This document shows positions 1,723 to 27,910 of a DNA stretch of 64,000 bases, in pieces (the first letter of the stretch is position 1; each line of letters starts with the position of its first letter). The DNA is taken from NCBI GenBank assembly GCA_003599625.1, contig QZIU01000008.1, positions 1,690 through 65,689 of the forward strand, in the 5' to 3' direction. A program made the position numbers and the translations under genes. The notes under the pieces are model-generated. The model was not told the origin of the DNA, did no database searches, and saw nothing but the letters and a program-made list of their open reading frames with translations. Source of the stretch: Candidatus Parcubacteria bacterium. GTDB lineage: Bacteria > Patescibacteriota > Minisyncoccia > UBA9983.

Positions 1723-2490
1723 GTGACAGCATTTATGAGCGAAATCATCAACATAATCTATCAAGACAACGACATCATAGCCGTCAACAAACCGGCGGGG
1801 ATGACAGTTCATAAAGTTCAAGGTTATAAGGTTCATAAAGAAGGAGAGGCCTTTTTAACAGACTTGCTTGTTGAAAATTTCCCCGAAGTGAAAGAGGTGG
1901 GCGATGAGCCCGAGCTGAGGCCGGGTATCGTCCATCGCTTGGACAAAGAAACTTCCGGAGTCCTTCTGATTGCCAGAAACCAAAAAGCTTTTGAATATCT
2001 TAAATCCCTTTTTCAGCAAAAAGAAATAATAAAAAAGTACGTTGTCTTGGTGGTAGGGGATTTAAAACAAGAAAAAGGAGTCATAGACCTGCCTATAGGG
2101 AGAAGCAGAAGCGATTTTCGCAAAAAATTGGCTTCCGCCGAGGCTAAAGGGGAATTAAGAGAAGCGGTCACCGAGTATCGCGTTATAGAAAGATTTTCCG
2201 GAAAAAATGAGTTTTCGGATAAAGTGAATCTTTACACCCTTGCCGAAGCTTATCCAAAAACCGGTCGAACCCATCAAATAAGAGCGCATTTCAAGGCCAT
2301 TGGCCATCCCGTCGTCTGCGATTTTTTATATGGCGGCAAAAAACCGATTTGTCCGTTCGGCTTGTCCAGGCACTTTTTACACGCTAATTTTTTAGAATTC
2401 ACAACACCCGGAGGGATCAGGCTTAAGTTGGAGGCCGATCTTCCCGAGGATTTAAGAAAAGCGCTGGAGGGATTGCGGAAAAATAAATAA
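1723..2490 (+). CDS. RluA-family pseudouridine synthase
   Basis: Catalytic-Asp motif HRLDKETSGVLLIARN and the RTHQIRAHF motif typical of the RluA/RluD family. Confidence 0.85.
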   Translation: MTAFMSEIINIIYQDNDIIAVNKPAGMTVHKVQGYKVHKEGEAFLTDLLVENFPEVKEVGDEPELRPGIVHRLDKETSGVLLIARNQKAFEYLKSLFQQKEIIKKYVVLVVGDLKQEKGVIDLPIGRSRSDFRKKLASAEAKGELREAVTEYRVIERFSGKNEFSDKVNLYTLAEAYPKTGRTHQIRAHFKAIGHPVVCDFLYGGKKPICPFGLSRHFLHANFLEFTTPGGIRLKLEADLPEDLRKALEGLRKNK

Positions 2491-2508
2491 TATGTTAGAT
2501 TCTTATCT

Positions 2509-2913
2509 ATGACAGTAAACATGGAACAGAGGAAAAAATGGGATGTTTCTCCCGGCAATACCGTCAAAGTCTGGCAAAAGATCAAAGAAGGAGACAAATT
2601 CAGATTGCAGGCTTTTGAGGGCCTTGTGATTGCCCATAAGCACGGCTTTGAACCGGGCGCCACTTTTACCGTAAGAAAGATCTCTAGCGGTATCGGCGTG
2701 GAAAGAATTTTCCCGGTATTTTCTCCAGCCATTGAAAAAATAGACGTAACGAAGACCGCCAAAACCAGGAAGTCCAAACTTTACTACGTAAGAACAAAAG
2801 CCGCTAAGGAAATAAGAAGGAAAATGAAAACGTTGAAGGTCGCCGCTAAAAAGGAATCTCCCGCGGCCGCGGAAGCGCCGAAGGAAACCGAGAAGGCGGA
2901 AGAGGGGAAGTAG
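2509..2913 (+). CDS. rplS: 50S ribosomal protein L19
   Basis: 134 aa. L19-like GDxV...KLYYVR core and a Lys/Ala-rich C-terminal extension. Confidence 0.8.
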   Translation: MTVNMEQRKKWDVSPGNTVKVWQKIKEGDKFRLQAFEGLVIAHKHGFEPGATFTVRKISSGIGVERIFPVFSPAIEKIDVTKTAKTRKSKLYYVRTKAAKEIRRKMKTLKVAAKKESPAAAEAPKETEKAEEGK

Positions 2914-2939
2914 AGAATTAAGAATCAAGAATTAAAATA

Positions 2940-2967
2940 CCCGGCAATACTTGCGGGTATTTTTAAA
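2940..2967 (+). terminator. Rho-independent terminator after rplS
   Basis: Hairpin acccgcaagtattgccgggt is followed by a T-run. Confidence 0.5.
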
Positions 2968-2990
2968 TTATAGCTGGCTACGCAATTGCG

Positions 2991-3030
2991 GAAAAGTTGT
3001 GGATAACTCAGCCAACCCGGCGGGTTGAAA
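2991..3030 (+). repeat. REP-like element copy 1 (TGTGGATAACTCAGCCAACCCGGCGGGTTG)
   Basis: Same ~45-nt family as 14609, 15096, 16702(rc) and 20725. Contains a perfect DnaA-box-like nonamer (rc TTATCCACA) and a 15-nt palindrome. Confidence 0.7.
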
Positions 3031-3094
3031 AGGGGTTAGAAGCGGCTTGAAAGCGAGAAAAAACTTAGGCATAATAAGAACGCACCACAAAATT

Positions 3095-3177
3095 GCGCGG
3101 GTGGCGAAATGGCAGACGCACTACCTTGAGGTGGTAGCGCCCTTACGGGCATGGAGGTTCAAGTCCTCTCCCGCGCA
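3095..3177 (+). tRNA. tRNA-Leu (anticodon GAG), long variable arm
   Basis: Manual cloverleaf: 7-bp acceptor stem gcgcggg/cccgcgc, anticodon stem ctacc/ggtag with loop ttGAGgt, long variable arm, T-arm ggagg-ttcaagt-cctct. Confidence 0.8.
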
Positions 3178-3191
3178 TTTCTTATTTTTAT

Positions 3192-3266
3192 GGTGGCTAT
3201 AGTTTAGTGGTAAAACTCCGCTCTGTGAAAGCGGTATCGAGAGTTCGATTCTCTCTAGCCACCCCA
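3192..3266 (+). tRNA. tRNA-His (anticodon GTG) with encoded G-1 and CCA
   Basis: Extra 5' G before the acceptor stem gtggcta/tagccac, anticodon loop ctGTGaa, and CCA encoded at 3264-3266. Confidence 0.8.
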
Positions 3267-3268
3267 TC

Positions 3269-3337
3269 GGGTTGTAGTACCAGCCTACCGGCAGGCAGGT
3301 ACCGGTAGTACGCACGTTTCGGGGTTCTCAATTTTCT
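3269..3337 (+). pseudogene. Degenerate partial copy of the tRNA-Pro 5' half, interrupted by an 18-nt GC palindrome
   Basis: gtagta...ggtagtacgcacgtttcgggg mirrors the D-arm/anticodon-arm sequence of the downstream tRNA-Pro but cannot fold as a tRNA. The palindrome cctaccggcaggcagg is inserted. Confidence 0.35.
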
Positions 3338-3408
3338 CGGGGTGTAGTATATCGGTAGTACGCACGCTTCGGGTGCGTGAAGGCCGAGTTCAATTCTCGG
3401 CACCCCGA
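3338..3408 (+). tRNA. tRNA-Pro (anticodon CGG)
   Basis: Acceptor stem cggggtg/caccccg, anticodon stem cacgc/gcgtg with loop ttCGGgt, T-arm ggccgagttcaattctcggc. Confidence 0.8.
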
Positions 3409-3439
3409 GAAAGTTGAGAACGGGAATGCCATACGGCAT

Positions 3440-3500
3440 TCCCCGGGAATCTTGATAAAAGATTCGTGTAGACCGGGTTCGATTCCCGGCAGCCCGACCA
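3440..3500 (+). other. tRNA-like 3' fragment (anticodon-like arm with a 9-nt loop containing GAT, canonical T-arm, acceptor 3' strand plus CCA) lacking a matching 5' acceptor strand
   Basis: T-arm ccggg-ttcgatt-cccgg followed by cagcccg-a-cca. No upstream cgggctg partner is present, and a 9-bp hairpin gggaatgcc/ggcattccc sits where a D-arm would be. Confidence 0.3.
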
Positions 3501-3571
3501 TTGACTTCTTAATCCGACCGTGTATTATATTCTCATAAGCCCGGGAAGGGGCTTTTTTAAGAAGCAAAAGA

Positions 3572-3754
3572 ATGTCAAAACTGACAAATTACATAAAAGA
3601 GACGAAAGTCGAACTCAAGTCCGTTAATTGGCCTACGAAAAAGCAGGCTTTAAACTATACTTTGTTGGTGATAGGCGCTTCCGTGGCCGTCGCCGCTTTC
3701 CTTGGCGTATTTGACATGCTATTTGCTTATTTATTGGGAAAATTCATAATATAA
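3572..3754 (+). CDS. secE: Preprotein translocase subunit SecE
   Basis: 60-aa single-TM protein immediately upstream of nusG. This conserved secE-nusG-rplK synteny plus the SecE-like C-terminal TM helix support the call. Confidence 0.75.
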   Translation: MSKLTNYIKETKVELKSVNWPTKKQALNYTLLVIGASVAVAAFLGVFDMLFAYLLGKFII

Positions 3755-14597: not shown

Positions 14598-14608
14598 CTG
14601 TTCATAAT

Positions 14609-15146
14609 CTGTGTATAACTCATCCAACCCTGCCTACCGGCAGGCAGGCCGCCGGGTTGGAATTACCGATTTTCTAAGCTATAATCCCAGGCATGGGAAA
14701 TATTTACCATATCTTGAATCGGGGGGTTAATAAAGATCCGATTTTTCTCGGCACTAACGACTATTTGCGTTTTATCTACTGTCTTCATCGCTTCAACAAT
14801 CGCGGTCGCAGGCTTGGCGAAAGAGAAGATCCGAAGGAATACCTCAAAGACCCTCCTCCTCAAGACAAACTGGTCAATATTCTAAAGTGGAGCCTGATGC
14901 CGAATCATTATCATATTCTGGTTGAAGAAGTGGTCGAAGGAGGCGCGCTTAAATTCGTCCAGCGGGTTATCGCTGGTCTGATTATTTTTTAAGTGTTGGG
15001 AGCAGGGAGTTCCCGATGATAAGCGACAAAGAGGCCTTTTTTGAACTGTATGAAACCAACGAAGAAAAATATCTCGACAGCTTCCACGACTGGCTTGTGG
15101 AAAACCTGTGAACAACTCAGTCATGCCTGCCGGTAGGCAGGTTGGA
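14609..15146 (+). mobile_element. Minimal IS200/IS605-family-like element (~540 bp): Y1 HUH transposase gene bracketed by two REP-like subterminal hairpin sequences
   Basis: The left hairpin repeat lies at 14609-14662 and the right hairpin repeat at 15096-15146. Between them is a single tnpA-like ORF with a HUH motif. The size is typical of tnpA-only IS200 elements. Confidence 0.55.
14693..15111 (+). pseudogene. IS200/IS605-type Y1 (HUH) transposase, frameshifted near the T6 run at 14981-14990
   Basis: Frame 2 gives YHILNRGVNKDPIF...LMPNHYHILVEE (HUH motif). Frame 1 continues with DYFLSVGSRE...EEKYLDSFHDWLVENL, whose ~20-residue tail resembles the C-terminal end (…YIENQ-like) of this tnpA family. 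Whether a catalytic Tyr is retained was not verified. The two pieces are in different frames. Confidence 0.6.
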
Positions 15147-15956: not shown

Positions 15957-16749
15957 TATTTCTATGCCTGGAAAATCTTTTTCAAAAGCCATTGCAATGA
16001 TTTTTGGGATAATTATCGCAATTTCTTTTTTGGCATTTGCTCTGCGTTGGAATAAAAAAGAAGAGGTTTCTCAGGTGGCAAAGCAATTAAGTCTGCCAGT
16101 TATAAGCTGGAAAAAAATTACCATAGAGAAGGAACCAAAAAAGTTCTTAATAAGCTTAAGGGTTCCCGAGGTGGCTTTTTACACCAATGATTCCTTGGCC
16201 GAAAAAATTAACGAGGATGTTGATAGATATATCGGAGCATTGAAGGATACTTTTATTCGAGGTGTCATAACTGCCGCCGATGATAACGGGGAAGCAAGCA
16301 CTCTCAATATCGATACGGAAATATTGCTTATGTCACCGCGTTTGATTTCCCTGGCTTTTACATCATCAGACCATCTGTCTGGCGGCAAAGTCGGCGACCT
16401 CGAGCGAACATATCTTATTTTCGACCTTGAAAAGGGCGAAATGATGAGGGAGGGAAACGAACTGTTTCGCGATGATTTGGCTTGGGCGGAAGCGGTAAGA
16501 ATAATGAAGCCGCTGCTGCTTTCTAAATATGACGGAGAACCAAGCTGTGATCTGATGTTTGCCCCGAAACGGGAAGCTTTCTCGGCCTCTTGCATCGGAG
16601 TTGATTACAACAATGAAGATAAAGGTCCTTTTTCTATATTCGGAGATATCCCAATTTCCGCAATCCAAGAATTTGTCGCTCCATGGGCGTTAAAAGAGAT
16701 TTTCCAACCCGGCGGGTTGGATGAGTTATCCACAGGTTTTCCACAATAA
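15946..16749 (+). CDS. Hypothetical membrane-anchored protein (possibly DUF3298/RsiV-like extracytoplasmic domain)
   Basis: N-terminal TM helix. The last 12 codons are supplied by the inverted REP-like copy at 16702-16746. Confidence 0.35.
   Translation: MLIDISMPGKSFSKAIAMIFGIIIAISFLAFALRWNKKEEVSQVAKQLSLPVISWKKITIEKEPKKFLISLRVPEVAFYTNDSLAEKINEDVDRYIGALKDTFIRGVITAADDNGEASTLNIDTEILLMSPRLISLAFTSSDHLSGGKVGDLERTYLIFDLEKGEMMREGNELFRDDLAWAEAVRIMKPLLLSKYDGEPSCDLMFAPKREAFSASCIGVDYNNEDKGPFSIFGDIPISAIQEFVAPWALKEIFQPGGLDELSTGFPQ
16702..16746 (-). repeat. REP-like element copy in inverted orientation (contains TTATCCACA)
   Basis: The reverse complement matches ttgtggaaaacctgtggataactcatccaacccgccgggttgg. 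Confidence 0.7.
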
Positions 16750-17514: not shown

Positions 17515-20500
17515 ATGAATCGTTTAGGCTTTATGAAAATATTTTCGTTAATTTTTTTAGGATTTTTCCCTGTGTTTAATTTTGTTTCAGCAAGCGAGAT
17601 TAAGTGTTCTGCCACAGGCTATTCAATCTTTGCTATAAACGGGATTTTTGTTGATGAAGACGAAGCAGATGACAATAAAACCGCACTTGAAAAAATTCTA
17701 CCTCCTTCCTTCAACAATCAACCCATCACCGTCGACTATCTCCACAACCCTTCTCATCTCGCCGGTCTGGGGGACTTGGTAAAGGTTGTATATCAGAAGA
17801 TCTTCGAATACGAGACGGTGATGGACTATGATCTGGTGGAAATGATCAGAGACGCCAGCGAGAAGGTGAAGACGCAAAAAGTCCTTCTCGTGGCTCACTC
17901 CCAAGGAAATTTCTACGCCAACAGTTTCTACGGCAGCGTGGCCGGAAAAGAAGGGGGTGTCCCCAAAGAATCCATAGGCGTTTACGCCGTCGCCACTCCG
18001 GCCGCAAGAGTGGCCGGAGAAGGGGGTTGGCTTACCTCCGACACCGACAAGGTCATCGCCGGCCTGATGTCGAAATTCCCGTTCAAACAAATCATGCCGC
18101 CCAATGACAGCATTGTCTTGAAAGAAGGCGATGATGAAATGGGACACAATTTTTCCCTCGTGTATCTCAAGTATAGCGGCGGAAAAATTGTCTCCGATAT
18201 CCAATCCTCTTTAAGTAAACTAACCTCAAGCGATGTTCAAGAGGAAGAAGAGAATTGCATCGATCCTCCGAAGATAACTTTGGCGCATAAGACCACGGGG
18301 GCGCTATTGGGCGTCTCCGACTTTGCCGGAGAATCGGTTGTCGATGCCGCCAAGGTTGTGGGAGAAAAATCATATCAACTGGGTTCATTGGCCGTAAAGA
18401 CCACCGAGCAAGTGGCTTCGGCGATAATAAAGGCTCCGGCTTTGATTTTAGGAGGTGGCCAAACTGATAACTCGGCCGCCGTCGCGGGGAATCCGGGAAA
18501 TTCCCAACCTGAGCCTGCTGAAAACTCTGCGGGTGGGCTGGAGTCTGTTGAAAACTCTGCAGTCCTGCCTGGTCGTCTTCGACCTGCCCGCCAGCCACTC
18601 TTCGCTGGCGATAGCGGGCGGGGAAGGTCGGCAGAGTTTTCAACAGGTGAAGTTGCTTCTAGGACTGCGGAGTTTTCTGCGGGAGACTCTACTAGCGAGC
18701 TGTGGAAAACTTCGCTCACCTTGCAGGTTGAAGACAACCAGCCAGGAGAGCGAAGTTTTCCACAGCCCCTTCGATCAAGAGGTTCGAATTTTTCCTCAAT
18801 CGCCCAACTCCAAAATTCTTTGGATGAGATGAGAAGACAAGCCGAGGCTTTGATGGAAGCGGAGAAGGGTGCGAAAAATGATCAAGCGGCTGAAGCTGAA
18901 GCCGCGACTCGCCAAGCCTCCCGTCCAACCCTTCTCTTCCTCGGTCCTCTGTATCCCGGCTTTGGCGGTGGAGCAGCTCCGAGTCAAATATCTCTTGTCT
19001 CAGAATCGAATCAACAGGAAGAAGAGGAAGAAGAAGAACAAGAGCCGGACTCTCTTTCGGCCCCGAATCTTCTCGTCCCTCAATGCGATTACTCTTTGGC
19101 TACGGACGGCTGTCTCCTCGCCACAACCACCGTATCATTTTCCTGGCAAGCCGTTTCCGGAGCTAGTCATTACGCCGTAAGCAAAAATGGAGAATACGCC
19201 ACGACCACGGAATTAAATTTTGTCGCAAACATCCCCGATTTCTCCGATTACAATTTCTCCGTCTCGGCCTCGTCGGCCGCTATCAGCCCCGCTTCCAGCG
19301 GGACAAGCACTCAAACTGTCTCTGTCGCCACTATTCCAATTGCCATAAACGAGATCGCCTGGATGGGAACAACCGCCTCTTCCTACGACGAATGGCTGGA
19401 AATCAAAAACAATACAAGCCATACGATAGACTTGTCTCAATGGGCCATAGAATCCCAAGACGGCCTGCCATATATCGCTCTTTCCGACGCGATCGGTCCG
19501 AAAGAATACCTTATCCTTGAAAGAAGGCAAGACGCGATAATCGTAAATCAATCCATCATTACCTACGGCACCGGAGCTTCCCAATGGGCGATGAGCAACA
19601 GCGGCGAAGAGCTTATCCTTTCTCATTCCTCCACCACGCTGGACAGAACCCCATCCGTAGCAGGCGAATGGGCCGCCGGAGACAGCGCAACCAGAAAAAC
19701 GATGGAGCGCGTCAATCCCAAAGGATCAGGAACCGATCCTTCCAACTGGACCACTTGGGGGGCAAATATCGATTTCATCAAAAGCGGCGAAGACACCGAT
19801 AATAACTCAATCTCCGGCACGCCCGGCCAATGCAATTCCGCAAGCTTCATCAACATCAACAACGGCCAAAACATATATCAGGATCTCACCCTTGAAAAAG
19901 ATAATTGCTATTATGTTTCAGAGAATATCCAAGTCTCGGCCACATCAACTCTTGCAATCGAATCCGGCGTTCAAGTCAGTCTTTATCTGAATAATCTTGT
20001 CGTCAACGGTGTCCTTGATGCCGAGGGGGAAGAAAGCAATCCGATAGTTTTCGATTCTTTTTCCGAAAATCCGACAACAAACAGGATAAGGATAAATAAC
20101 GATAACGGAACCAGTACAATGACCAATGTCGTTATCTCAAACACGGGAGGAATCAGGTTGAACAACGGAGCCGATCTGGAGATAACCAACGCGGAATTTA
20201 TCAACAACAATGCCAGCATCGAACTAAACAACAACAGCTCGGCGGAAATTGAAAACGTGACTTTCGCCAGCACCACGAATGAGGCGATCGCGGCGTACAA
20301 TGGCAGCAGTGTTTCTGTCGCTTCTTCCACTATATCCAACACCATCAACGCCGACGCTATCGGAATATACGATTCCAATCTATCGATGTCTTCGACAACG
20401 ATAGACACCGTTCTTGGCGGCGACGGCATAGGCGTTTATGATTCGACAGTTTCCATAGCCAGCTCTACGATCAGCAATGTTTTAAACGGAGATGGCATCA

Positions 20501-20715
20501 CCGCGTATCATTCAACCGTATCAATATCGACTTCCACAATAAGCGACATATCGAGCGAGATGCCGGCAAGAGACGGCATTAGTCTTTATGATGAATCTGT
20601 CGCGACTGTCCTAGACGCGGTAATCGAAAATGTCTCCGGCGAAGGTATAATCGTTTCGGAAGACAGTAGTATCTCCGGCAACGCGATAATAGAGGGGGAG
20701 GAAGTGGAGTTCTAG
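17515..20715 (+). CDS. Secreted multidomain protein: N-terminal alpha/beta-hydrolase (lipase-like) domain, GC-rich linker carrying an inserted palindromic element, lamin-tail domain (LTD), C-terminal right-handed beta-helix repeats
   Basis: Signal peptide. Nucleophile-elbow-like VAHSQGN is present. The LTD signature INEIAWMGT...DEWLEIKN...GEELIL is present. There are ~10 repeats of the xxISNTxxxDGIxxYxS beta-helix type. Confidence 0.75.
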   Translation: MNRLGFMKIFSLIFLGFFPVFNFVSASEIKCSATGYSIFAINGIFVDEDEADDNKTALEKILPPSFNNQPITVDYLHNPSHLAGLGDLVKVVYQKIFEYETVMDYDLVEMIRDASEKVKTQKVLLVAHSQGNFYANSFYGSVAGKEGGVPKESIGVYAVATPAARVAGEGGWLTSDTDKVIAGLMSKFPFKQIMPPNDSIVLKEGDDEMGHNFSLVYLKYSGGKIVSDIQSSLSKLTSSDVQEEEENCIDPPKITLAHKTTGALLGVSDFAGESVVDAAKVVGEKSYQLGSLAVKTTEQVASAIIKAPALILGGGQTDNSAAVAGNPGNSQPEPAENSAGGLESVENSAVLPGRLRPARQPLFAGDSGRGRSAEFSTGEVASRTAEFSAGDSTSELWKTSLTLQVEDNQPGERSFPQPLRSRGSNFSSIAQLQNSLDEMRRQAEALMEAEKGAKNDQAAEAEAATRQASRPTLLFLGPLYPGFGGGAAPSQISLVSESNQQEEEEEEEQEPDSLSAPNLLVPQCDYSLATDGCLLATTTVSFSWQAVSGASHYAVSKNGEYATTTELNFVANIPDFSDYNFSVSASSAAISPASSGTSTQTVSVATIPIAINEIAWMGTTASSYDEWLEIKNNTSHTIDLSQWAIESQDGLPYIALSDAIGPKEYLILERRQDAIIVNQSIITYGTGASQWAMSNSGEELILSHSSTTLDRTPSVAGEWAAGDSATRKTMERVNPKGSGTDPSNWTTWGANIDFIKSGEDTDNNSISGTPGQCNSASFININNGQNIYQDLTLEKDNCYYVSENIQVSATSTLAIESGVQVSLYLNNLVVNGVLDAEGEESNPIVFDSFSENPTTNRIRINNDNGTSTMTNVVISNTGGIRLNNGADLEITNAEFINNNASIELNNNSSAEIENVTFASTTNEAIAAYNGSSVSVASSTISNTINADAIGIYDSNLSMSSTTIDTVLGGDGIGVYDSTVSIASSTISNVLNGDGITAYHSTVSISTSTISDISSEMPARDGISLYDESVATVLDAVIENVSGEGIIVSEDSSISGNAIIEGEEVEF
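18510..18775 (+). repeat. GC-rich palindromic MITE/RPE-like element(s) inserted in frame in a coding region (16-bp TIR ctgttgaaaactctgc at 18546/18631, core cgacctgcccgcc...ggcggggaaggtcg)
   Basis: Local GC content far exceeds the genome background. Nested inverted repeats are present. The core is shared with 21309-21429. Confidence 0.6.
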
Positions 20716-20724
20716 CCATGATTT

Positions 20725-20770
20725 CCTGTGGATAAACCTGTTGATAACTCAGCCAACATGCCGGGTTGGA
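20725..20770 (+). repeat. REP-like element copy between convergent genes (cctgtggataaacctgttgataactcagccaacatgccgggttgg)
   Basis: Family match. Overlaps the last codons of the minus-strand glycosyltransferase gene. Confidence 0.65.
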
Positions 20771-22089
20771 ATGAGGGAATATGCCGCGATGGTGTCGTCT
20801 AGCATTTTCTGGAGGGAGAATTTTGACAGGATTTTTTGGCGAAGATTGGCGGCGAATTGCTCGCGAAGATTTTTATCTTCCATCAGCTTTTTAATCGCTT
20901 CGGCTAGGGCTTCAGGATTTTTGGGTGGCGCCAAAATGCCTTCTTTTCCGTTATCTATGATCTCCGGTATGCCTCCGACGCTGGAAGCAATAACCGGCAA
21001 TCCGGCCAAGCCGGCTTCAAGTAACAGATAAGGCAGGCCTTCTTTGACGGAAGGCAAGACAAAAATATCAAGGGCTTTAAGATAATTGGCCGAGTTCGGA
21101 TCAGACAATTCGTTTTTACCGATTATAAAAAATTTATCTCCAATTTCGTAATTCTTGATTCTTGATTCATAATTCTTTTTTTCTTCCCCCCAGCCAATAA
21201 GGATAGTCGTCAAGCGATAGCCTCTAGCCGCTAGCGAATGGATCGCTTCGATCAAGTTTATGTGTCCTTTGTTTTTGGTAAACTCGCCAATGGTGCCGAT
21301 AAGGTGGTCTGATAAATTTGCCGACCTTCCCCGCCCGCTATCGCCAGCGAAGCGTGGCGGGCGGGCAGGTTGAAGACAACCAGCTTGCCCCGCCAAATAC
21401 GGCGGGGGCAGGACTTCAAATTTATCAGACTGCGATTTATAATTTGCCGCAAGCTCCTCTCTTGCCCTTTCTTTTTCCAAGAAATTATAATCCTCCTGTT
21501 TGATTCCGTTATGTATTACTGTCATTTTTCTTGCCGGAGCGATTTTGTTTTTTATCGCCTCTCTATAATCATTTTCCGAGACACAGATTATTTTGTCGTA
21601 AAAAAGACAAGTCAACCTACTGATCATTTTTATAAGTATGTTTTGCCAGCGGAGCCGGTCTTCGAGAAAGGCCCAACCGTGAACTGTAAACACAGTGGAA
21701 AGTTGAAAGTGGAAAGTTGAAAGTTTATAAACAAAACAAGCCAATCCCGCAGCTCCGCCTGCTTTGGAGCTGGACACATGAACAATGTCAGGCCTTGTTT
21801 TCAAAAGAAGAAAAAAAACTTCAACAGAAGAAAAAATATCTTTTAAGAAATTTACATTTCTTTGAAAATTTTTAATTTCAAAATAGGGCAAGTTGGCCCC
21901 TGTCAGCCTTTGGGCCATCAGGCCTCTTCCGCCTCCCGCGATAATCGGCTCAAATTGATCCTTTGGCAGATTTGTCGCCAGGTCGAAAACATATTTCTGA
22001 GCCCCGCCCCAGACCGACTTGGTTATGATATATAAAACCTTCTTTTTCGTTGATTTTTCGGGCATTTTATTATACCGTAAGGATACCAT
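20749..22089 (-). CDS. Glycosyltransferase family 1 (GT-B fold; GT4-like)
   Basis: C-terminal EGLPYLLLEAGLAGLPVIASSVGGIPEII motif. Carries two in-frame repeat insertions (21309-21429 and 21695-21726). The start (22089 or 22065) overlaps the divergent neighbour. Confidence 0.8.
   Translation of the reverse strand: MVSLRYNKMPEKSTKKKVLYIITKSVWGGAQKYVFDLATNLPKDQFEPIIAGGGRGLMAQRLTGANLPYFEIKNFQRNVNFLKDIFSSVEVFFLLLKTRPDIVHVSSSKAGGAAGLACFVYKLSTFHFQLSTVFTVHGWAFLEDRLRWQNILIKMISRLTCLFYDKIICVSENDYREAIKNKIAPARKMTVIHNGIKQEDYNFLEKERAREELAANYKSQSDKFEVLPPPYLAGQAGCLQPARPPRFAGDSGRGRSANLSDHLIGTIGEFTKNKGHINLIEAIHSLAARGYRLTTILIGWGEEKKNYESRIKNYEIGDKFFIIGKNELSDPNSANYLKALDIFVLPSVKEGLPYLLLEAGLAGLPVIASSVGGIPEIIDNGKEGILAPPKNPEALAEAIKKLMEDKNLREQFAANLRQKILSKFSLQKMLDDTIAAYSLIPTRHVG
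21309..21429. repeat. Second copy of the GC-rich palindromic element, with 12-13-bp TIRs (tctgataaatttg/caaatttatcaga)
   Basis: Core ccgaccttccccgcccgctatcgccagcgaagcgtggcgggcgggcaggttgaagacaaccagc is near-identical to the reverse complement of 18583-18634. Confidence 0.65.
21695..21726. repeat. Heptamer-periodic tract (gtggaaa gttgaaa)x2, 28 nt plus gttt, inside the GT gene
   Basis: Direct reading. Encodes STFHFQLSTV in frame. Confidence 0.8.
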
Positions 22090-22096
22090 ATTTATG

Positions 22097-23263
22097 GATC
22101 TTTCTGAAGAAAAACGAAAAAGAATCCTTATTTTTTCCCTGGCTTACGCGCCATTCGTGGGCGGGGCGGAGCTGGCAGTCAAGGAAATTACCGATAGGAT
22201 CGATAATGCCGATTTTGATCTAATCACCCTCCGTTTCGACCGGAAATGGCCTAGAAAAGAGCGACTCGGCAATGTAAATGTTTATCGGATCGGCGGAGGG
22301 AAGCTTTTCTTCCCCATTTTTGCTTTTTGTAAAGCGAACAGGCTTCATAAAAAAAACCCGTTTGATTTGGTCTGGTCTATCATGGCAAACCGGGCGGGGT
22401 TCGCTGCGTTGTTTTTTAAACTTCGGCATCCGGAAGTCAAATATTTGCTCACTTTGCAGGAGGGCGACCCAGTCGATCATCCGTTCAGGCAGATGGGGGT
22501 GCTCAGATATTTTTTGACCAGGCTTTACCGGAAAGTTTTCAGCAAGGCGGATTGCATGCAGGCGATAAGCAATTATCTGGCGGAATGGGGAAGGAACATG
22601 GGAGTAAGGGCGGAAGTGGAGGTGGTGCCGAATGGAGTGGATACGAAGTCCATAAAGTCGAAAGTTCATAAAGTTCATAAAGTTAAAGACAAAAATAAAA
22701 AAACAATAATTACGACCTCGAGATTGGTTCATAAAAACGGGATTGATACTTTGATCAGAGCGGTGAGTAAATTAAAGCTACAAGCTACAAGCTACAAGCT
22801 ACAAGCCCTTATTCTCGGCGCGGGGCCGGAGGAGCAAAAGCTGAAAAATCTGGCAAAAGAATTGCAGGTTGAAGATGTTGTCAGATTTCTCGGCCATGTC
22901 GGGCCAGAGAAAATTCCGGATTATTTGGGTCAGGCCGATATATTCGTGAGGCCTTCAAGGTCGGAAGGCTTGGGGAGTTCTTTCCTGGAAGCGATGGGGG
23001 CGGGGCTTCCCGTGATAGGCACAAGAACGGGCGGCATTGTTGATTTTATTAAAGATCCTGAAGATGTCGGCCCGAACGTTGCCACCGGAGTCTTTGCCAA
23101 AATAGACGATCCGGAAGACTTGGCCTACAAGATCCGCATGCTCTTCATTAACGACGAGTTGGCCGGCTTTATCTCGCGAAACGGCAAGTGGCTGGTGGAG
23201 AACAATTATTCCTGGGACAGCGTGGCCGTCAGAATGCGAGAAATTTTTAGTAAAGTTGCATAA
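22097..23263 (+). CDS. Glycosyltransferase family 1 (GT-B)
   Basis: GLGSSFLEAMGAGLPVIGTRTGG motif. Start taken at MDLSEEKRKRILIF because the longer ORF overlaps the divergent gene. Contains the (gctacaa)x4 tract and the aaagttcat repeats. Confidence 0.8.
   Translation, partial: DLSEEKRKRILIFSLAYAPFVGGAELAVKEITDRIDNADFDLITLRFDRKWPRKERLGNVNVYRIGGGKLFFPIFAFCKANRLHKKNPFDLVWSIMANRAGFAALFFKLRHPEVKYLLTLQEGDPVDHPFRQMGVLRYFLTRLYRKVFSKADCMQAISNYLAEWGRNMGVRAEVEVVPNGVDTKSIKSKVHKVHKVKDKNKKTIITTSRLVHKNGIDTLIRAVSKLKLQATSYKLQALILGAGPEEQKLKNLAKELQVEDVVRFLGHVGPEKIPDYLGQADIFVRPSRSEGLGSSFLEAMGAGLPVIGTRTGGIVDFIKDPEDVGPNVATGVFAKIDDPEDLAYKIRMLFINDELAGFISRNGKWLVENNYSWDSVAVRMREIFSKVA
22777..22804 (+). repeat. Perfect tandem heptamer (gctacaa)x4, 28 nt, in frame (encodes LQATSYKLQ)
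   Basis: An identical tract in the same reading frame occurs at 26212-26239 in a different GT gene. Confidence 0.9.
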
Positions 23264-23310: not shown

Positions 23311-23928
23311 ATGAACAAAATCATCAAAATTAAAGACAGAACATCAGCCGGTAATCGCATTGCTGAGATTGCTTCGCGGGGCGAGGTAGTTTTCCATTCC
23401 GGGGATCTGGCGAACTTATGGGGTATTCAAAACAAAAGTACTCTGAATAAAACTCTTCTCAGGTACGCCGCCAGAAAATTTATCTATCGAATTTATAAAG
23501 GGCTTTATGCGCTAAAAAAGATTGAGGATATAGATCCATTTTTTCTGGGGATAAAGGCCATACACGGTCCCGCGTATGTGTCTTGCGAGTCGGCGCTTTA
23601 CGAGTTCGGTATTCTAAATCAGCCCCCGAAAGAAATCACCTTGGTAAGTTCTTTTTCTAGACATTTTAAGGTTGACGGTTACAAGTATCGTTCCAGAAAA
23701 ATGAAGGATGACTTTCTTTATAATGATATCGGCATAGAAGTTAGAAACGGCATAAGGATTGCTTCCGTGGCGAGAGCCGTTGCTGACATGCTTTACTTTA
23801 ATCCGCGGAAATATTTTGACGCTTGGAATTCCGGTTTGATCGACCGCAAAGAAGTAAAAAATATTATCGATGCCATGGGTTATAAAATCAAACTTCCGAA
23901 ACATGAGTTCAATGATATTGCCGGATAA
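23311..23928 (+). CDS. AbiEi-like antitoxin/transcriptional regulator (type IV TA)
   Basis: ~200-aa protein with an N-terminal wHTH-like region. Its end overlaps a downstream AbiEii-family nucleotidyltransferase gene, the canonical AbiE operon arrangement. Confidence 0.5.
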   Translation: MNKIIKIKDRTSAGNRIAEIASRGEVVFHSGDLANLWGIQNKSTLNKTLLRYAARKFIYRIYKGLYALKKIEDIDPFFLGIKAIHGPAYVSCESALYEFGILNQPPKEITLVSSFSRHFKVDGYKYRSRKMKDDFLYNDIGIEVRNGIRIASVARAVADMLYFNPRKYFDAWNSGLIDRKEVKNIIDAMGYKIKLPKHEFNDIAG

Positions 23929-24646
23929 AAAAGACGCCATTCACAAAGCTTGGCTTTACAGGGTTCTGCAGTCACTCGCGGATGAGCCTTATCTTGCGGG
24001 TTGTTTATATTTTAAGGGCGGGACATGCGCTTCCATGCTTGGTTGGCTGGACAGATTTTCCGTTGATCTGGATTTTGATTACGCAGGGGAGGAGAAAGAT
24101 GTCAAAAAAACAAAAATCTTACTTGAGAAAATTTTTGCCGAATTGGGGTTGACTATTAAAGACGGCAGTAAAAACGGAATCCAATATTTTCTGAAATACG
24201 AGAATGACGGCCGGGGGAGAAGAATATTAAAACTGGATGCTTCGTTTCCACTCTTTCATGCCAGCAAGTATAAGCCGGAGAGATTTTTGGAGATAGACAG
24301 AATTCTGAACTGCCAAACCAAAGAAACGATGTTTGCTCATAAGCTCGTTGCTTTGAGGGACAGGTTCAACCGAACCGGGGGCATCGCGGGAAGAGATATA
24401 TACGACATTCACCATTTTTTCATGAATGGATGGAAATATGATACAGAGGTGATCATAGAAAGAACCGACAAAGAGCCGAAAGAGTTTCTAAAAGAACTCG
24501 TTGGATTTATAGAAACCAAGGTTTCCAAAAAACATATTGATGAAGACTTGAACCCGCTCCTTCCGGCGGGTAAATTCGCTTTGGCTCGTAAAGTTCTAAA
24601 GGGGGAAACAATTAGCCTTATAAAAGATGAAATAAGGAGGTTGTAG
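23903..24646 (+). CDS. AbiEii/AbiGii-family nucleotidyltransferase toxin (DUF1814)
   Basis: LYFKGGTCASMLGWLDRFSVDLDFDY matches the GGTAL...RFSEDIDF nucleotidyltransferase motif of AbiEii. Confidence 0.7.
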   Translation: MSSMILPDKKDAIHKAWLYRVLQSLADEPYLAGCLYFKGGTCASMLGWLDRFSVDLDFDYAGEEKDVKKTKILLEKIFAELGLTIKDGSKNGIQYFLKYENDGRGRRILKLDASFPLFHASKYKPERFLEIDRILNCQTKETMFAHKLVALRDRFNRTGGIAGRDIYDIHHFFMNGWKYDTEVIIERTDKEPKEFLKELVGFIETKVSKKHIDEDLNPLLPAGKFALARKVLKGETISLIKDEIRRL

Positions 24647-25703: not shown

Positions 25704-27910
25704 AAATTTTAAGTATAGGCACGGACAGAAAAATATTTGATGAGAATTCTGAAGTTAGAAAGAGAGTTATTGAATATGGCAAATTGGCGGAAGAATTACA
25801 CATCGTAATTTTAACTCAAAAGTCAAAAGTCAAAACTCAAAACGACAAATCAAAACTTAGTATATCAAATAATGCGTTTATTTATCTGACAAATTCAAGA
25901 AATAAATTATTTTATATTTTTGATGCAATAAAAATCGGCAAAAAAATAATTGAAAATTGGAAATTGAAAATTGAAAATTCAAGTGACAAGCCTCTTGTCA
26001 CTTGCCAGGATCCTTTTGAAACCGGCTTTATTGGTTGGAGAATTGCGAGAAAATTCAAATTGCCGTTGCAACTACAGGTTCATACCGATTTTTTAAGCCC
26101 ATATTTCTGGAAGGAATCTTTTTTAAATAAAATCCGAGTTTTGCTGGGGAAATTTTTAATCAAACGCGCGGATAGCATCAGGGTTGTGAGCGAAAGAATC
26201 AAACAATCTTTGCTACAAGCTACAAGCTACAAGCTACAAACTAAAGTAACCGTACTTCCGATTTTTGTAGATACGGAAAAAATAAAAAATACGCCGATCA
26301 AAACCGACCTCCATAAAAAATATCCCCAATTCGATTTCATTATTCTGATGGCCTCGCGCTTCAGCAAAGAGAAAAATATTGAGCTGGCGATCGGGGCATT
26401 CAGCGAAGTTGTTAAAATTCATCCAAAAGTCGGCTTAATCATCGTCGGTTCCGGCCAGGAAAAACAGAATTATGAACCTGCCTGCCGGCGAGGCAGGTCA
26501 AGAATAAAGAAAGAATTGCAGAAGAATATAATAATAGAGAATTGGACGGACGATCTAGCTTCTTATTACAAAACTACTGACCTGTTTTTGCTAACCTCCA
26601 ATTATGAAGGCTATGGCAGGACTTTGGTTGAAGCTGCCGCAGTTGGCTGCAAAATCATTTCCAGCGATGCCGGCGTCGCGCCGGAAATTTTGGAAAAAGA
26701 AAATATTTTCGCCGTAGGGGATAAAAATGGTTTAATCCAGAAACTTATTGCCGCTCTTTCTGGCAGTATTAAAGAAACTAAAACGATTCCAACAAAGACA
26801 AAAGAAGAATATTTAAAGGAGTATAAAGAAATTTGGGAATCTGCAGGAAAGAGAAAACCAAAAATTTTAATCGTTACCCAAAAAGTTGATATCAACGACG
26901 ATGTCCTGGGTTTTTTCCACGATTGGCTGAGCAAAATGGCAGAATCGGCCGATTTGGTTGTTGTTGCAAATTCTGTCGGAAGATATGAGTTGCCGGAAAA
27001 TGTAAAGATTTTCTCTTTGGGTAAGGAAAGGGGAGCGGGGAAGCTTGCAAAGTTTTTTAAATACCAGTTCTTGCTATTGAAATTCTTGCCAAAGTCAGAC
27101 GGCATATTTTACCACATGTGCCCGGAGTATGTATTTTCGGCGGGACTTTGGCCGAAAATATTCAGGAAAAAAACCTTGCTATGGTATACTCATAAGGCGG
27201 TTAACTGGAAACTCAAATTGGCGGAAAAATTGATTGACGGGGTATTTACCGCCTCAAAAGAGAGTTTCAGATTGCCTTCAAAAAAAGTCGAGATTACGGG
27301 GCATGGGATAGACCTCGAAAAATTTTCAATTTTCAATTTTCAATTTTCAAAAAAAGACAAAAAGACTAATGATAAATTTAGAATCATAAGTGTGGGGAGG
27401 ATCGCGCCGGTGAAGAATTATGATTTGTTGATAGATGCCGCGGAGATATTGAAAAATAAGAATTTTAGCGCGGGAAATTGGGAAATCAAAATTGCCGGAT
27501 CGCCGGCTTTAGAGAGCGACAAAATTTATTTTGAAAGACTGAAAGAAAAGATCCGAGAAAAAAAACTGGAAGATGAAATAATTTTTGTCGGCCCCATTCC
27601 AAACAAAGATATTGTGGATTTTTACCAAAAAGGCGATCTGTTTGTAAATTTTAGCGATACTGGCAGCTTGGATAAAGCGGTGCTTGAGGCCATGGCTTGC
27701 GGATTGAAGATTCTGACTTCGAATGAGGCGTTTGCAAGAATGATTCCTGAAGAAGATTTTACTAAGAATGACGCTGGTTCAATCGCCAATAAAATATTTA
27801 ACTTATCTCAAAAAGAAAATAATTCAGATCTGCAACTATTTGTTGTAGAAAAACATAACCTTGCTAATTTGATTAAAAATGTCGTGAATTTTTATAGAGA
27901 GACTATCTAG
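25700..27910 (+). CDS. Tandem two-module glycosyltransferase family 1 protein (two GT-B units)
   Basis: Two E-x7-E-type C-terminal GT1 motifs (EGYGRTLVEAAAVGCKIISS and GSLDKAVLEAMACGLKILTS). Carries four short-repeat insertions. Confidence 0.8.
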   Translation: MKILSIGTDRKIFDENSEVRKRVIEYGKLAEELHIVILTQKSKVKTQNDKSKLSISNNAFIYLTNSRNKLFYIFDAIKIGKKIIENWKLKIENSSDKPLVTCQDPFETGFIGWRIARKFKLPLQLQVHTDFLSPYFWKESFLNKIRVLLGKFLIKRADSIRVVSERIKQSLLQATSYKLQTKVTVLPIFVDTEKIKNTPIKTDLHKKYPQFDFIILMASRFSKEKNIELAIGAFSEVVKIHPKVGLIIVGSGQEKQNYEPACRRGRSRIKKELQKNIIIENWTDDLASYYKTTDLFLLTSNYEGYGRTLVEAAAVGCKIISSDAGVAPEILEKENIFAVGDKNGLIQKLIAALSGSIKETKTIPTKTKEEYLKEYKEIWESAGKRKPKILIVTQKVDINDDVLGFFHDWLSKMAESADLVVVANSVGRYELPENVKIFSLGKERGAGKLAKFFKYQFLLLKFLPKSDGIFYHMCPEYVFSAGLWPKIFRKKTLLWYTHKAVNWKLKLAEKLIDGVFTASKESFRLPSKKVEITGHGIDLEKFSIFNFQFSKKDKKTNDKFRIISVGRIAPVKNYDLLIDAAEILKNKNFSAGNWEIKIAGSPALESDKIYFERLKEKIREKKLEDEIIFVGPIPNKDIVDFYQKGDLFVNFSDTGSLDKAVLEAMACGLKILTSNEAFARMIPEEDFTKNDAGSIANKIFNLSQKENNSDLQLFVVEKHNLANLIKNVVNFYRETI
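25814..25856 (+). repeat. Heptamer-periodic tract (NNcaaaa)x6 inside the GT gene
   Basis: ctcaaaa gtcaaaa gtcaaaa ctcaaaa cgacaaa tcaaaac, in frame (QKSKVKTQNDKSKL). Confidence 0.75.
25951..25978 (+). repeat. (gaaaatt)x4, 28 nt, reverse complement of the aattttc tract, in frame
   Basis: Direct reading. Unit 2 is ggaaatt. Confidence 0.85.
26212..26239 (+). repeat. (gctacaa)x4, 28 nt, in frame (LQATSYKLQ)
   Basis: Identical to 22777-22804. Confidence 0.9.
27321..27348 (+). repeat. (aattttc)x4, 28 nt, in frame (FSIFNFQFS)
   Basis: Identical to the intergenic tract at 1660-1687. Confidence 0.9.

Follow-up and report, generated by a model that had tools for sequence, protein, structure and literature searches.

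A GC-rich repeat nested at the centres of coding palindromes in a Patescibacteria gene neighbourhood, probably a miniature element landing at hairpin tips

This analysis concerns a GC-rich repeat in a 64,000-nt stretch of contig QZIU01000008.1 from a Candidatus Parcubacteria bacterium, referred to as the window, where it is found inside the gene of a GT4-family glycosyltransferase (GT) and inside the gene of a secreted protein that carries LTD and beta-helix domains. Three copies, designated A, B and the mini copy, are nested at the dyad centres of palindromes that lie within coding sequence. The 121-nt feature in the GT gene is probably a composite, consisting of a palindrome of the host coding sequence and the GC-rich repeat, or core, inserted at its dyad centre. 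On balance, the core appears to be a non-autonomous repeat similar to Rickettsia palindromic elements (RPEs) and transposable elements of the miniature inverted-repeat type (MITEs) that lands at hairpin tips.

The initial annotation had described two near-identical copies in reverse-complement arrangement, each in the coding orientation of its host open reading frame (ORF), and both observations held. A repeat search of the window returned 74-nt arms at 18569-18642 and 21310-21383 that are 91% complementary, and the 20-mer GCTGGCGATAGCGGGCGGGG is present exactly twice, with an expectation of 0.00 from shuffles. The shared unit could be refined to 96 nt in the GT gene (copy B) and 72 nt in the secreted-protein gene (copy A); the coordinates of all features are listed in Table 1. 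The two cores are 93% identical (67 of 72 aligned positions) apart from one 24-nt indel, which corresponds exactly to one hairpin, h1. A genome-wide search for copies had also been suggested, and when it was run within the window it added a third copy of 30 nt that had been missed, reversed relative to its host gene. Once h1 (24 nt), a further hairpin, h3 (36 nt), and three terminal nucleotides on either side are taken out of copy B, all 30 positions of this mini copy match it. The termini TCCTG...AAGGT are common to all three copies, which form one repeat family with constant ends, and the ends of the large copies, GTCCTGCC and GGAAGGTC, make up a short imperfect terminal inverted repeat (TIR) with six of eight positions complementary. 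The remaining hairpin, h2, is retained throughout, and its stem reads GGTCG/CGACC in copy A and GGTTG/CAACC in copy B and the mini copy, with both sides changed. Copy B is predicted to fold into a 14-bp closing stem with three hairpins (h1, h2 and h3), and copy A into a closing stem of 15-16 bp with h2 and h3 only. The z-scores of folding lie between -6.8 and -9.3, whichever strand is considered. The GC content of the large cores, at 69%, compares with 40% for the window overall.

The position of the copies was examined by excising them from the sequence. Removing the 96 nt of copy B restores a perfect 14+14 palindrome, GTCTGATAAATTTG|CAAATTTATCAGAC, and removing the 72 nt of copy A restores a perfect 15+15 palindrome, CTGTTGAAAACTCTG|CAGAGTTTTCAACAG, both with the dyad TG|CA. 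The mini copy lies at the centre of a perfect 19+19 palindrome about 90 nt beyond copy A. No target-site duplication was found at any of the three copies, and the excision of A and B leaves no duplicated bases. Copy A and its arms are in turn enclosed by an outer, decayed palindrome, the arms of which are about 79% complementary by eye, with three of the four mismatches being potential G·U pairs on the sense strand. In the GT gene, the arms read GTCTGATAAATTTG at 21307-21320 and CAAATTTATCAGAC at 21417-21430 on the plus strand, and the 3' arm in gene orientation ends 6 nt before the codons for IGTIGEF. The flanks had previously been described as TIRs of 12-13 bp that differ between the copies. 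The inverted repeat itself is real and 14 nt long, but it is probably not the element's own, since excision leaves perfect palindromes. By eye, the flanks of A and B match at only about 9 of 16 positions, compared to 93% identity for the cores. The flanking repeats are therefore better read as host or target coding palindromes than as TIRs of the element, because the arms are for the most part unrelated while the cores match, excision restores the palindromes, and orthologues have a palindrome without the core.

This last point is based on the DNA of seven orthologous Patescibacteria GT4 loci, several of which keep the gene order GT2-GT-LTD. A perfect or near-perfect palindrome of 31-57 nt is found at the same linker position in all seven orthologues, with its end 2-12 nt short of the (I/V)GTIGE codons; in most of the loci it is the longest or the sole such palindrome. 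The GC-rich core was detected in none of these seven GT loci with nhmmer and blastn. The linker thus normally holds palindromic DNA, and the core would have landed at its centre in the lineage of the window. An eighth homologue (L137, GT gene at 2480-3694) instead has a heptanucleotide tandem repeat, (CAAATCT)n, at the linker site, encoding KSQISNL. The orthologue palindromes have the form a-b-a' / spacer / a-b'-a', as in CACTTGGAGAC-TCG-GTCTCCAAGTG CTACGAC CACTTGGAGAC-CGA-GTCTCCAAGTG, and encode ...ALGxSxSxLExExPS.... In an alignment of the palindromes from six of the loci, 99.2% of the cells are paired and 12 of the 21 stem pairs are changed on both sides, while neither shuffles nor slid registers approach this pairing; hairpins within the arms also co-vary. 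The lineages concerned are only about 50-58% identical in protein. When palindrome compatibility is judged from the protein alone, 17-19 nt are compatible by chance, and only scores of at least 20 are informative. The palindrome is kept either by selection on a hairpin or cruciform or by homogenization through conversion or template switching. The latter process has been put forward for the perfect palindromes found in mitochondrial coding genes of Nematomorpha (PMC6649704). A second case of a palindrome within coding sequence in this neighbourhood is the perfect 18+1+18 arrangement ATCTCCAAAACCGACAAC C GTTGTCGGTTTTGGAGAT (L136:4749-4785) in the gene of an LTD/PKD protein of a syntenic relative.

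Sequence comparison shows that the core is an insertion relative to the orthologues, as the initial annotation had claimed. The span from IKxxDYxF to IGTIGEF comprises 75 residues here and 24-52 residues in 119 homologues. Copy B adds the residues EVLPPPYLAGQAGCLQPARPPRFAGDSGRGRS, and without the core the enzyme would read ...KSQSDKFANLSD-HL-IGTIGEF. The structural modelling that had been recommended was carried out with AlphaFold2 using 66 homologues and gave a mean predicted local distance difference test (pLDDT) score of 89.6 and a predicted template modelling (pTM) score of 0.86. The sole segment below a pLDDT of 50, residues 221-247, lies inside the inserted residues 217-248, which are modelled as coil between a helix (198-213) and a strand (254-261). 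The insert falls between the Pfam domains Glyco_transf_4 (residues 27-197) and Glycos_transf_1 (260-418), that is, in the linker of two Rossmann-like domains, and according to the model it is an unstructured interdomain loop. The possibility of a pseudogene, also raised earlier, was checked as well: the ORF is intact, the model is confident and every family-invariant residue is present. The GT4 gene is not a pseudogene. Its protein is available in a public database (P0001) as a 438-aa version with the start at 22065.

The large copies are read in the same element frame, as ...QPARPPRFAGDSGRGRSANL... in the GT4 enzyme and as ...RPARQPLFAGDSGRGRSAEF... in the secreted protein, and the ORF translations confirm that the peptide FAGDSGRGRSA is identical in these two unrelated proteins. 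Two explanations had been offered for this, namely a tolerated read-through frame, since other frames might contain stops, or a peptide module encoded by the element. Six-frame translation of the cores supports the assumption about stops. In both large copies, stops are absent from element frames F1 (the host frame), F2 and R2 and present in F3 and R3; R1 is closed in B. Because three of the six frames are open in both large copies, a shared frame is expected about one third of the time, and the chance that two surviving intragenic copies share orientation and frame is about 1 in 3. A tolerated read-through frame is sufficient as an explanation. A module with a selected frame, in which ...ARxPxFAGDSGRGRSA... 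is functional in the host proteins, would fit an identical 11-aa peptide in two unrelated proteins with the same orientation and frame. However, it is highly implausible in view of this chance level, the modelled disorder of the peptide (pLDDT below 50), and the mini copy, which is reversed and read by its host in frame R2 as TLQVEDNQPG. A copy in another orientation or frame had been named beforehand as speaking against a module, and one was found, though it is a single short derivative copy. The peptide was also searched for with a six-frame profile against the top 8,000 word-sharing candidates of 5.8 billion clustered proteins and all 1.84 billion representatives, and this recovered no other protein with the core peptides; the only matches were the GT4 enzyme (P0001) and, at its locus, the antisense ORF P0121, both from this contig. 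FAGDSGRGRSA is best seen as a passive by-product of two copies residing in the same one of three open frames. The antisense ORF, which is called as a gene across the core in the public collection (61 aa, window positions 21370-21720, plus strand), is almost certainly spurious and open only because the GC-rich core has no stops.

If the core is an RPE- or MITE-like repeat, the 96-nt unit would be copied at the DNA level by a transposase or recombinase acting in trans or, failing that, by templated repair, and would enter where an extruded hairpin or cruciform exposes its single-stranded tip. Within genes, only copies with a multiple-of-three length and a stop-free frame would survive, and the ribosome would read them through as 32, 24 and 10 extra residues in disordered linkers. 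We infer both this mode of mobility and the preference for hairpin tips. Several points speak against this interpretation. There are just three copies, all within 2.9 kb, and no fourth copy was found in the window or in ten related loci with nhmmer and blastn. The exact 20-mer GCTGGCGATAGCGGGCGGGG revealed no copy in 185,579 representative genomes, where its 12 matches are isolated chance occurrences in GC-rich taxa whose similarity does not extend further, and the search of viral contigs, plasmids and phages revealed none either. A metagenome scan was run with a 19-mer from h2, CTGGTYGTCTTCRACCTGC, and among the matches listed were chance coding matches; this pattern encodes LVVFDL and is uninformative, unlike GCGATAGCGGGCGGGGAAGGTC, a specific pattern. 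Pfam domains of transposases, integrases or reverse transcriptases (RTs) were absent from all scanned ORFs of the window, the scan having taken in nearly all ORFs of at least 200 aa, several of which have no Pfam family. In addition, the nearest relative for an empty-site comparison is a GT homologue at 58% identity, AGTCTG is common to the left flanks of both large copies, so the arms could be old parts of the element, and the translation of the copies is predicted. The multiple-of-three length is partly guaranteed, since bases may be assigned to the arms or to the insert in steps of two, so that one in three alternatives will always fit, and it was therefore discarded as independent evidence.

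The main alternative is that no dedicated mobile element is involved and that palindrome tips break, for instance by hairpin cleavage, and are repaired by copying a neighbouring palindrome through TG/CA microhomology, the core having spread locally in this way by ectopic templated repair or gene conversion. The clustering of the copies, the TG|CA shared by the junctions of A and B, the lack of a transposase domain on the scanned ORFs of the window and the proposal of template switching and conversion for perfect coding palindromes elsewhere (PMC6649704) are consistent with such templated repair. Nevertheless, the boundaries of A and B are identical despite different flanks, and the reversed mini copy keeps TCCTG...AAGGT. 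Constant boundaries are better predicted by a defined element than by copying that depends on microhomology, and they weigh against templated repair, which also leaves the origin of a 69%-GC core in a 40%-GC genome unexplained and which we regard as rather unlikely. Another possibility is an RPE-like MITE with long TIRs of its own, in which the arms and core were transposed as a whole 124-nt unit and the arms later diverged while remaining complementary. Arms and core do form a single long-stemmed multibranch fold, the AGTCTG of the left flanks would be a remnant of such TIRs, an arm family CTGYKGAAAACTYYGC is shared by three palindromes of the secreted-protein gene, and RPEs are a precedent for in-frame palindromic repeats (PMC10969869). 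This explanation is improbable, however, as most of the arm sequence of A is unrelated to that of B, in contrast to the cores, the arms of B occupy the site of the palindromes in seven core-free orthologues, 124 nt is not a multiple of three whereas the 96 nt of the core alone is, and no target duplication is present.

Selection might instead maintain the fold because the repeat is a structured RNA with a function or, within the mRNAs, a cis-regulatory hairpin such as an RNase III or stability element. Such a role would agree with the very stable folds, the changes on both sides of the h2 stem, the G·U pairs kept on the sense strand of the decayed outer stem and the co-variation in the orthologous palindromes. 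Yet both strands fold equally well, the module content varies (h1+h2+h3, h2+h3 or h2 alone) and one of the copies runs opposite to its mRNA. At the gathering threshold, Rfam reports only three tRNAs in the window and no family for the cores; at E <= 10 there are only spurious, sub-threshold matches of the miRNA or snoRNA type, none of them on core A or B. An RNA function is thus very unlikely to be the reason for the repeat. Further candidates were rejected. A tRNA-derived origin of the cloverleaf-shaped fold, similar to short interspersed elements, does not apply, as the three true tRNAs are all that ARAGORN and Rfam report. A diversity-generating retroelement was dismissed since the scanned ORFs of the window carry no RT domain and the five mismatches between A and B are not adenine-specific and include paired stem changes. 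An intron or intein and an assembly artefact were discarded on account of the open, frame-preserving reading frames and the intact host genes.

Intragenic MITEs are known from bacteria, including RPEs, the QMITEs of Coxiella and intragenic ERIC and BOX elements (PMC10969869; PMC5896051). Like these, the core is short (about 30-150 nt), palindromic or hairpin-forming, repeated and without an ORF of its own, and it lies in frame in unrelated genes, where it gives rise to an extra peptide, in this case a predicted one, at places tolerated by the fold. The several copies per genome that are typical of RPEs have their counterpart in the three copies of the window with their strong hairpin folds, and the in-frame insertion at fold-compatible positions of intact genes in the intact ORFs and the low-confidence loop. 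Unlike RPEs, the core is GC-rich in an AT-rich genome, occupies the dyad centre of perfect palindromes that were already in place, has a modular make-up (96, 72 and 30 nt) and occurs in only three clustered copies. Judging by homologue names, its host belongs to the Patescibacteria and not to the Rickettsiales, and the core does not belong to a described RPE family as far as this can be judged without an RPE consensus comparison; no sequence relation was detected, with no similar DNA in plasmids or phages and no peptide relatives. Compared to classical MITEs, the core ends are complementary at six of eight positions, while the flanking repeats of 14-19 nt differ between the copies and behave as target, and both the target-site duplication and, among the scanned ORFs, an autonomous insertion sequence (IS) partner with a transposase or integrase domain are missing. 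The core is not a member of any described RPE or MITE family, and the literature searched contained no report of in-frame palindromic elements in Patescibacteria.

Insertion into palindromic, hairpin-forming DNA is shared with IS1397, ISKpn1, IS621 and ISPpu9/10, which target repetitive extragenic palindromic (REP) sequences or palindromic units (PMC1525189). These ISs are autonomous, kilobase-sized and extragenic, whereas the units described here have 30-96 nt, encode no protein and have their targets in coding sequence. The subterminal hairpins, the absence of a target duplication and the expected mobility via single-stranded hairpin DNA resemble palindrome-associated elements derived from IS200/IS605 and REPs or REPINs with their RAYT transposases (PMC3333891, PMC3116915). 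With regard to an IS200/IS605-type target, A and B are both located after ...TG and before CA..., although this is based on only two copies, and no Y1 transposase domain was found on the scanned ORFs. All three copies are intragenic and have no GTAG/CGTC end by inspection, which distinguishes them from REPs, BIMEs and REPINs. Yeast mitochondrial DNA contains mobile GC clusters, including optional in-frame clusters in VAR1. The palindromic "byp" inserts of Magnusiomyces capitatus are mentioned in PMC6649704. Both are, like the core, GC-rich palindromic mini-elements of AT-rich genomes that can reside inside coding sequence, but they are organellar, and byps, which are skipped by bypassing during translation, do not have to keep the frame. 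All copies here are stop-free multiples of three, so read-through suffices. Finally, the palindromes of the GT4 orthologues share with Nematomorpha mitochondrial genes the presence of perfect inverted repeats in functional coding genes, with arms identical as if maintained (PMC6649704). In Nematomorpha they reach up to 284 bp and extend over conserved protein regions, whereas the GT4 palindromes have 28-57 nt, are confined to one linker site and offer a second element its landing site.

Further nested palindromes exist in the same window. A different 20-nt GC-rich palindrome, CCTGCCTACCGGCAGGCAGG, interrupts the loop of a hairpin between genes (14621-14660), of which uninterrupted copies are found near 3010 and 16706, and it also sits within the D-loop of a degenerate half of tRNA-Pro (3272-3299). 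Together with copy A inside its outer palindrome, these cases suggest that the entry of small GC-rich palindromes into hairpin tips is a habit of this genome. The complete tRNA-Pro (3337-3409) has this degenerate duplicate of its own 5' half upstream (region 3264-3421) and is flanked by an extra 14-nt inverted repeat, GTTCTCAATTTTCT / AGAAAGTTGAGAAC, extending its acceptor stem to 21 bp. Separately, the repeat TGTGGAAAACCTGTGGATAACTCA and, after it, a GC hairpin, CCAACCCGGCGGGTTGG, are found between genes at 2985-3031, 14599-14630, 15095-15137, 16701-16747 and 20725-20787. This intergenic repeat has a DnaA-box-like sequence, TGTGGATAA, and its first half resembles the palindrome arms in the secreted-protein gene.

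The window is a chromosomal piece with nusG, L11, recA, ftsK and a large glycan-biosynthesis cluster, and the nearest homologues of its genes bear Patescibacteria or Parcubacteria names. Copy A and the mini copy are both located within a low-complexity linker of the secreted protein (about aa 330-420). Heptanucleotide tandem repeats are present inside or beside genes, with four units of GCTACAA in two different GT genes (22777-22804 and 26212-26239) and four units of TTTTCAA at three sites (1660-1690, 25948-25979 and 27321-27350). An AbiEii-type toxin gene (23870-24646) is overlapped by a preceding 205-aa ORF without a Pfam match, and the two are probably an AbiE toxin-antitoxin pair. This region (23311-24646) marks a boundary where the GC content falls from about 45-50% to about 36-39%.

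Table 1. Host genes, repeat copies, hairpins and palindromes (positions refer to the window unless a locus is named)
Feature	Position	Strand	Details
GT4-family glycosyltransferase, host gene of copy B	20749-22089	-	446 aa from first ATG
Core copy B, inserted unit	21321-21416	-	96 nt = 32 codons, 69% GC, nhmmer E = 1.6e-28
Hairpin h1	21388-21407	-	CCCCGCCG TATT TGGCGGGG; B only, lies in the 24 nt missing from A and the mini copy
Hairpin h2	21365-21383	-	CTGGTTGTCTTCAACCTGC; in all three copies, identical in the mini copy
Hairpin h3	21330-21365	-	CCCGCCCGCC...GGCGGGCGGG; encodes RFAGDSGRG; common to A and B
5' arm (gene orientation) of GT4 coding palindrome	21417-21430	-	coding strand GTCTGATAAATTTG, encodes (Q)SDKF
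3' arm of GT4 coding palindrome	21307-21320	-	coding strand CAAATTTATCAGAC, encodes (A)NLSD
Secreted protein, host gene of copy A and mini copy	17515-20715	+	1066 aa, LTD and beta-helix domain
Core copy A	18560-18631	+	72 nt = 24 codons, 69% GC; h2 and h3, without h1
Left arm of palindrome around copy A	18545-18559	+	15 nt
Right arm of palindrome around copy A	18632-18646	+	15 nt
Outer decayed palindrome, left arm	18514-18533	+	arm family CTGYTGAAAACTCTGC; encloses copy A and its arms
Outer decayed palindrome, right arm	18665-18683	+	pairs with 18514-18533
Mini copy	18718-18747	-	30 nt = 10 codons, reversed relative to its host gene
Left arm around mini copy	18699-18717	+	GCTGTGGAAAACTTCGCTC, half of 19+19 perfect palindrome
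Right arm around mini copy	18748-18766	+	GAGCGAAGTTTTCCACAGC, half of 19+19 perfect palindrome
Orthologue palindrome	L133:10616-10646		
Orthologue palindrome	L136:4016-4070		
Orthologue palindrome	L138:2952-2996		
Orthologue palindrome	L139:5692-5736		
Orthologue palindrome	L140:1872-1928		
Orthologue palindrome	L141:10608-10652		
Orthologue palindrome	L142:1947-1991		
20-nt GC-rich palindrome family	3272-3299, 14629-14648, 15122-15141		CCWGCCTACCGGCAGGCAGG; intergenic host hairpin CCAACC[...]GGGTTGG

If confirmed genome-wide, these observations would mean that the phenomenon known from RPEs, in which selfish palindromic DNA gives rise to new peptide segments in working genes, reaches the Candidate Phyla Radiation (CPR). 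The odd GC-rich low-complexity inserts in some CPR proteins would gain a concrete cause and would be neither domains nor signs of pseudogenes, and the dyad centre of perfect palindromes would be a target rule that is open to biochemical testing. A bolder and distinctly tentative proposition, which we consider possible but doubtful, is that Patescibacteria harbour tiny GC-rich mobile modules at palindrome tips as well as a persistent GT4 "palindrome of palindromes" with mirrored arm changes. Modules that integrate at tips may nest in one another and may be domesticated as linker peptides, and the persistence of the GT4 palindrome may imply a function at the nucleic-acid level, such as an RNase III or a cruciform/recombinase site, or active palindrome conversion in CPR bacteria. 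The co-varying coding palindrome in the GT4 gene offers a rare bacterial case for the question of selection versus conversion. The importance of these findings would grow if targeting of hairpin tips and an actively maintained coding palindrome prove to be general in CPR bacteria.

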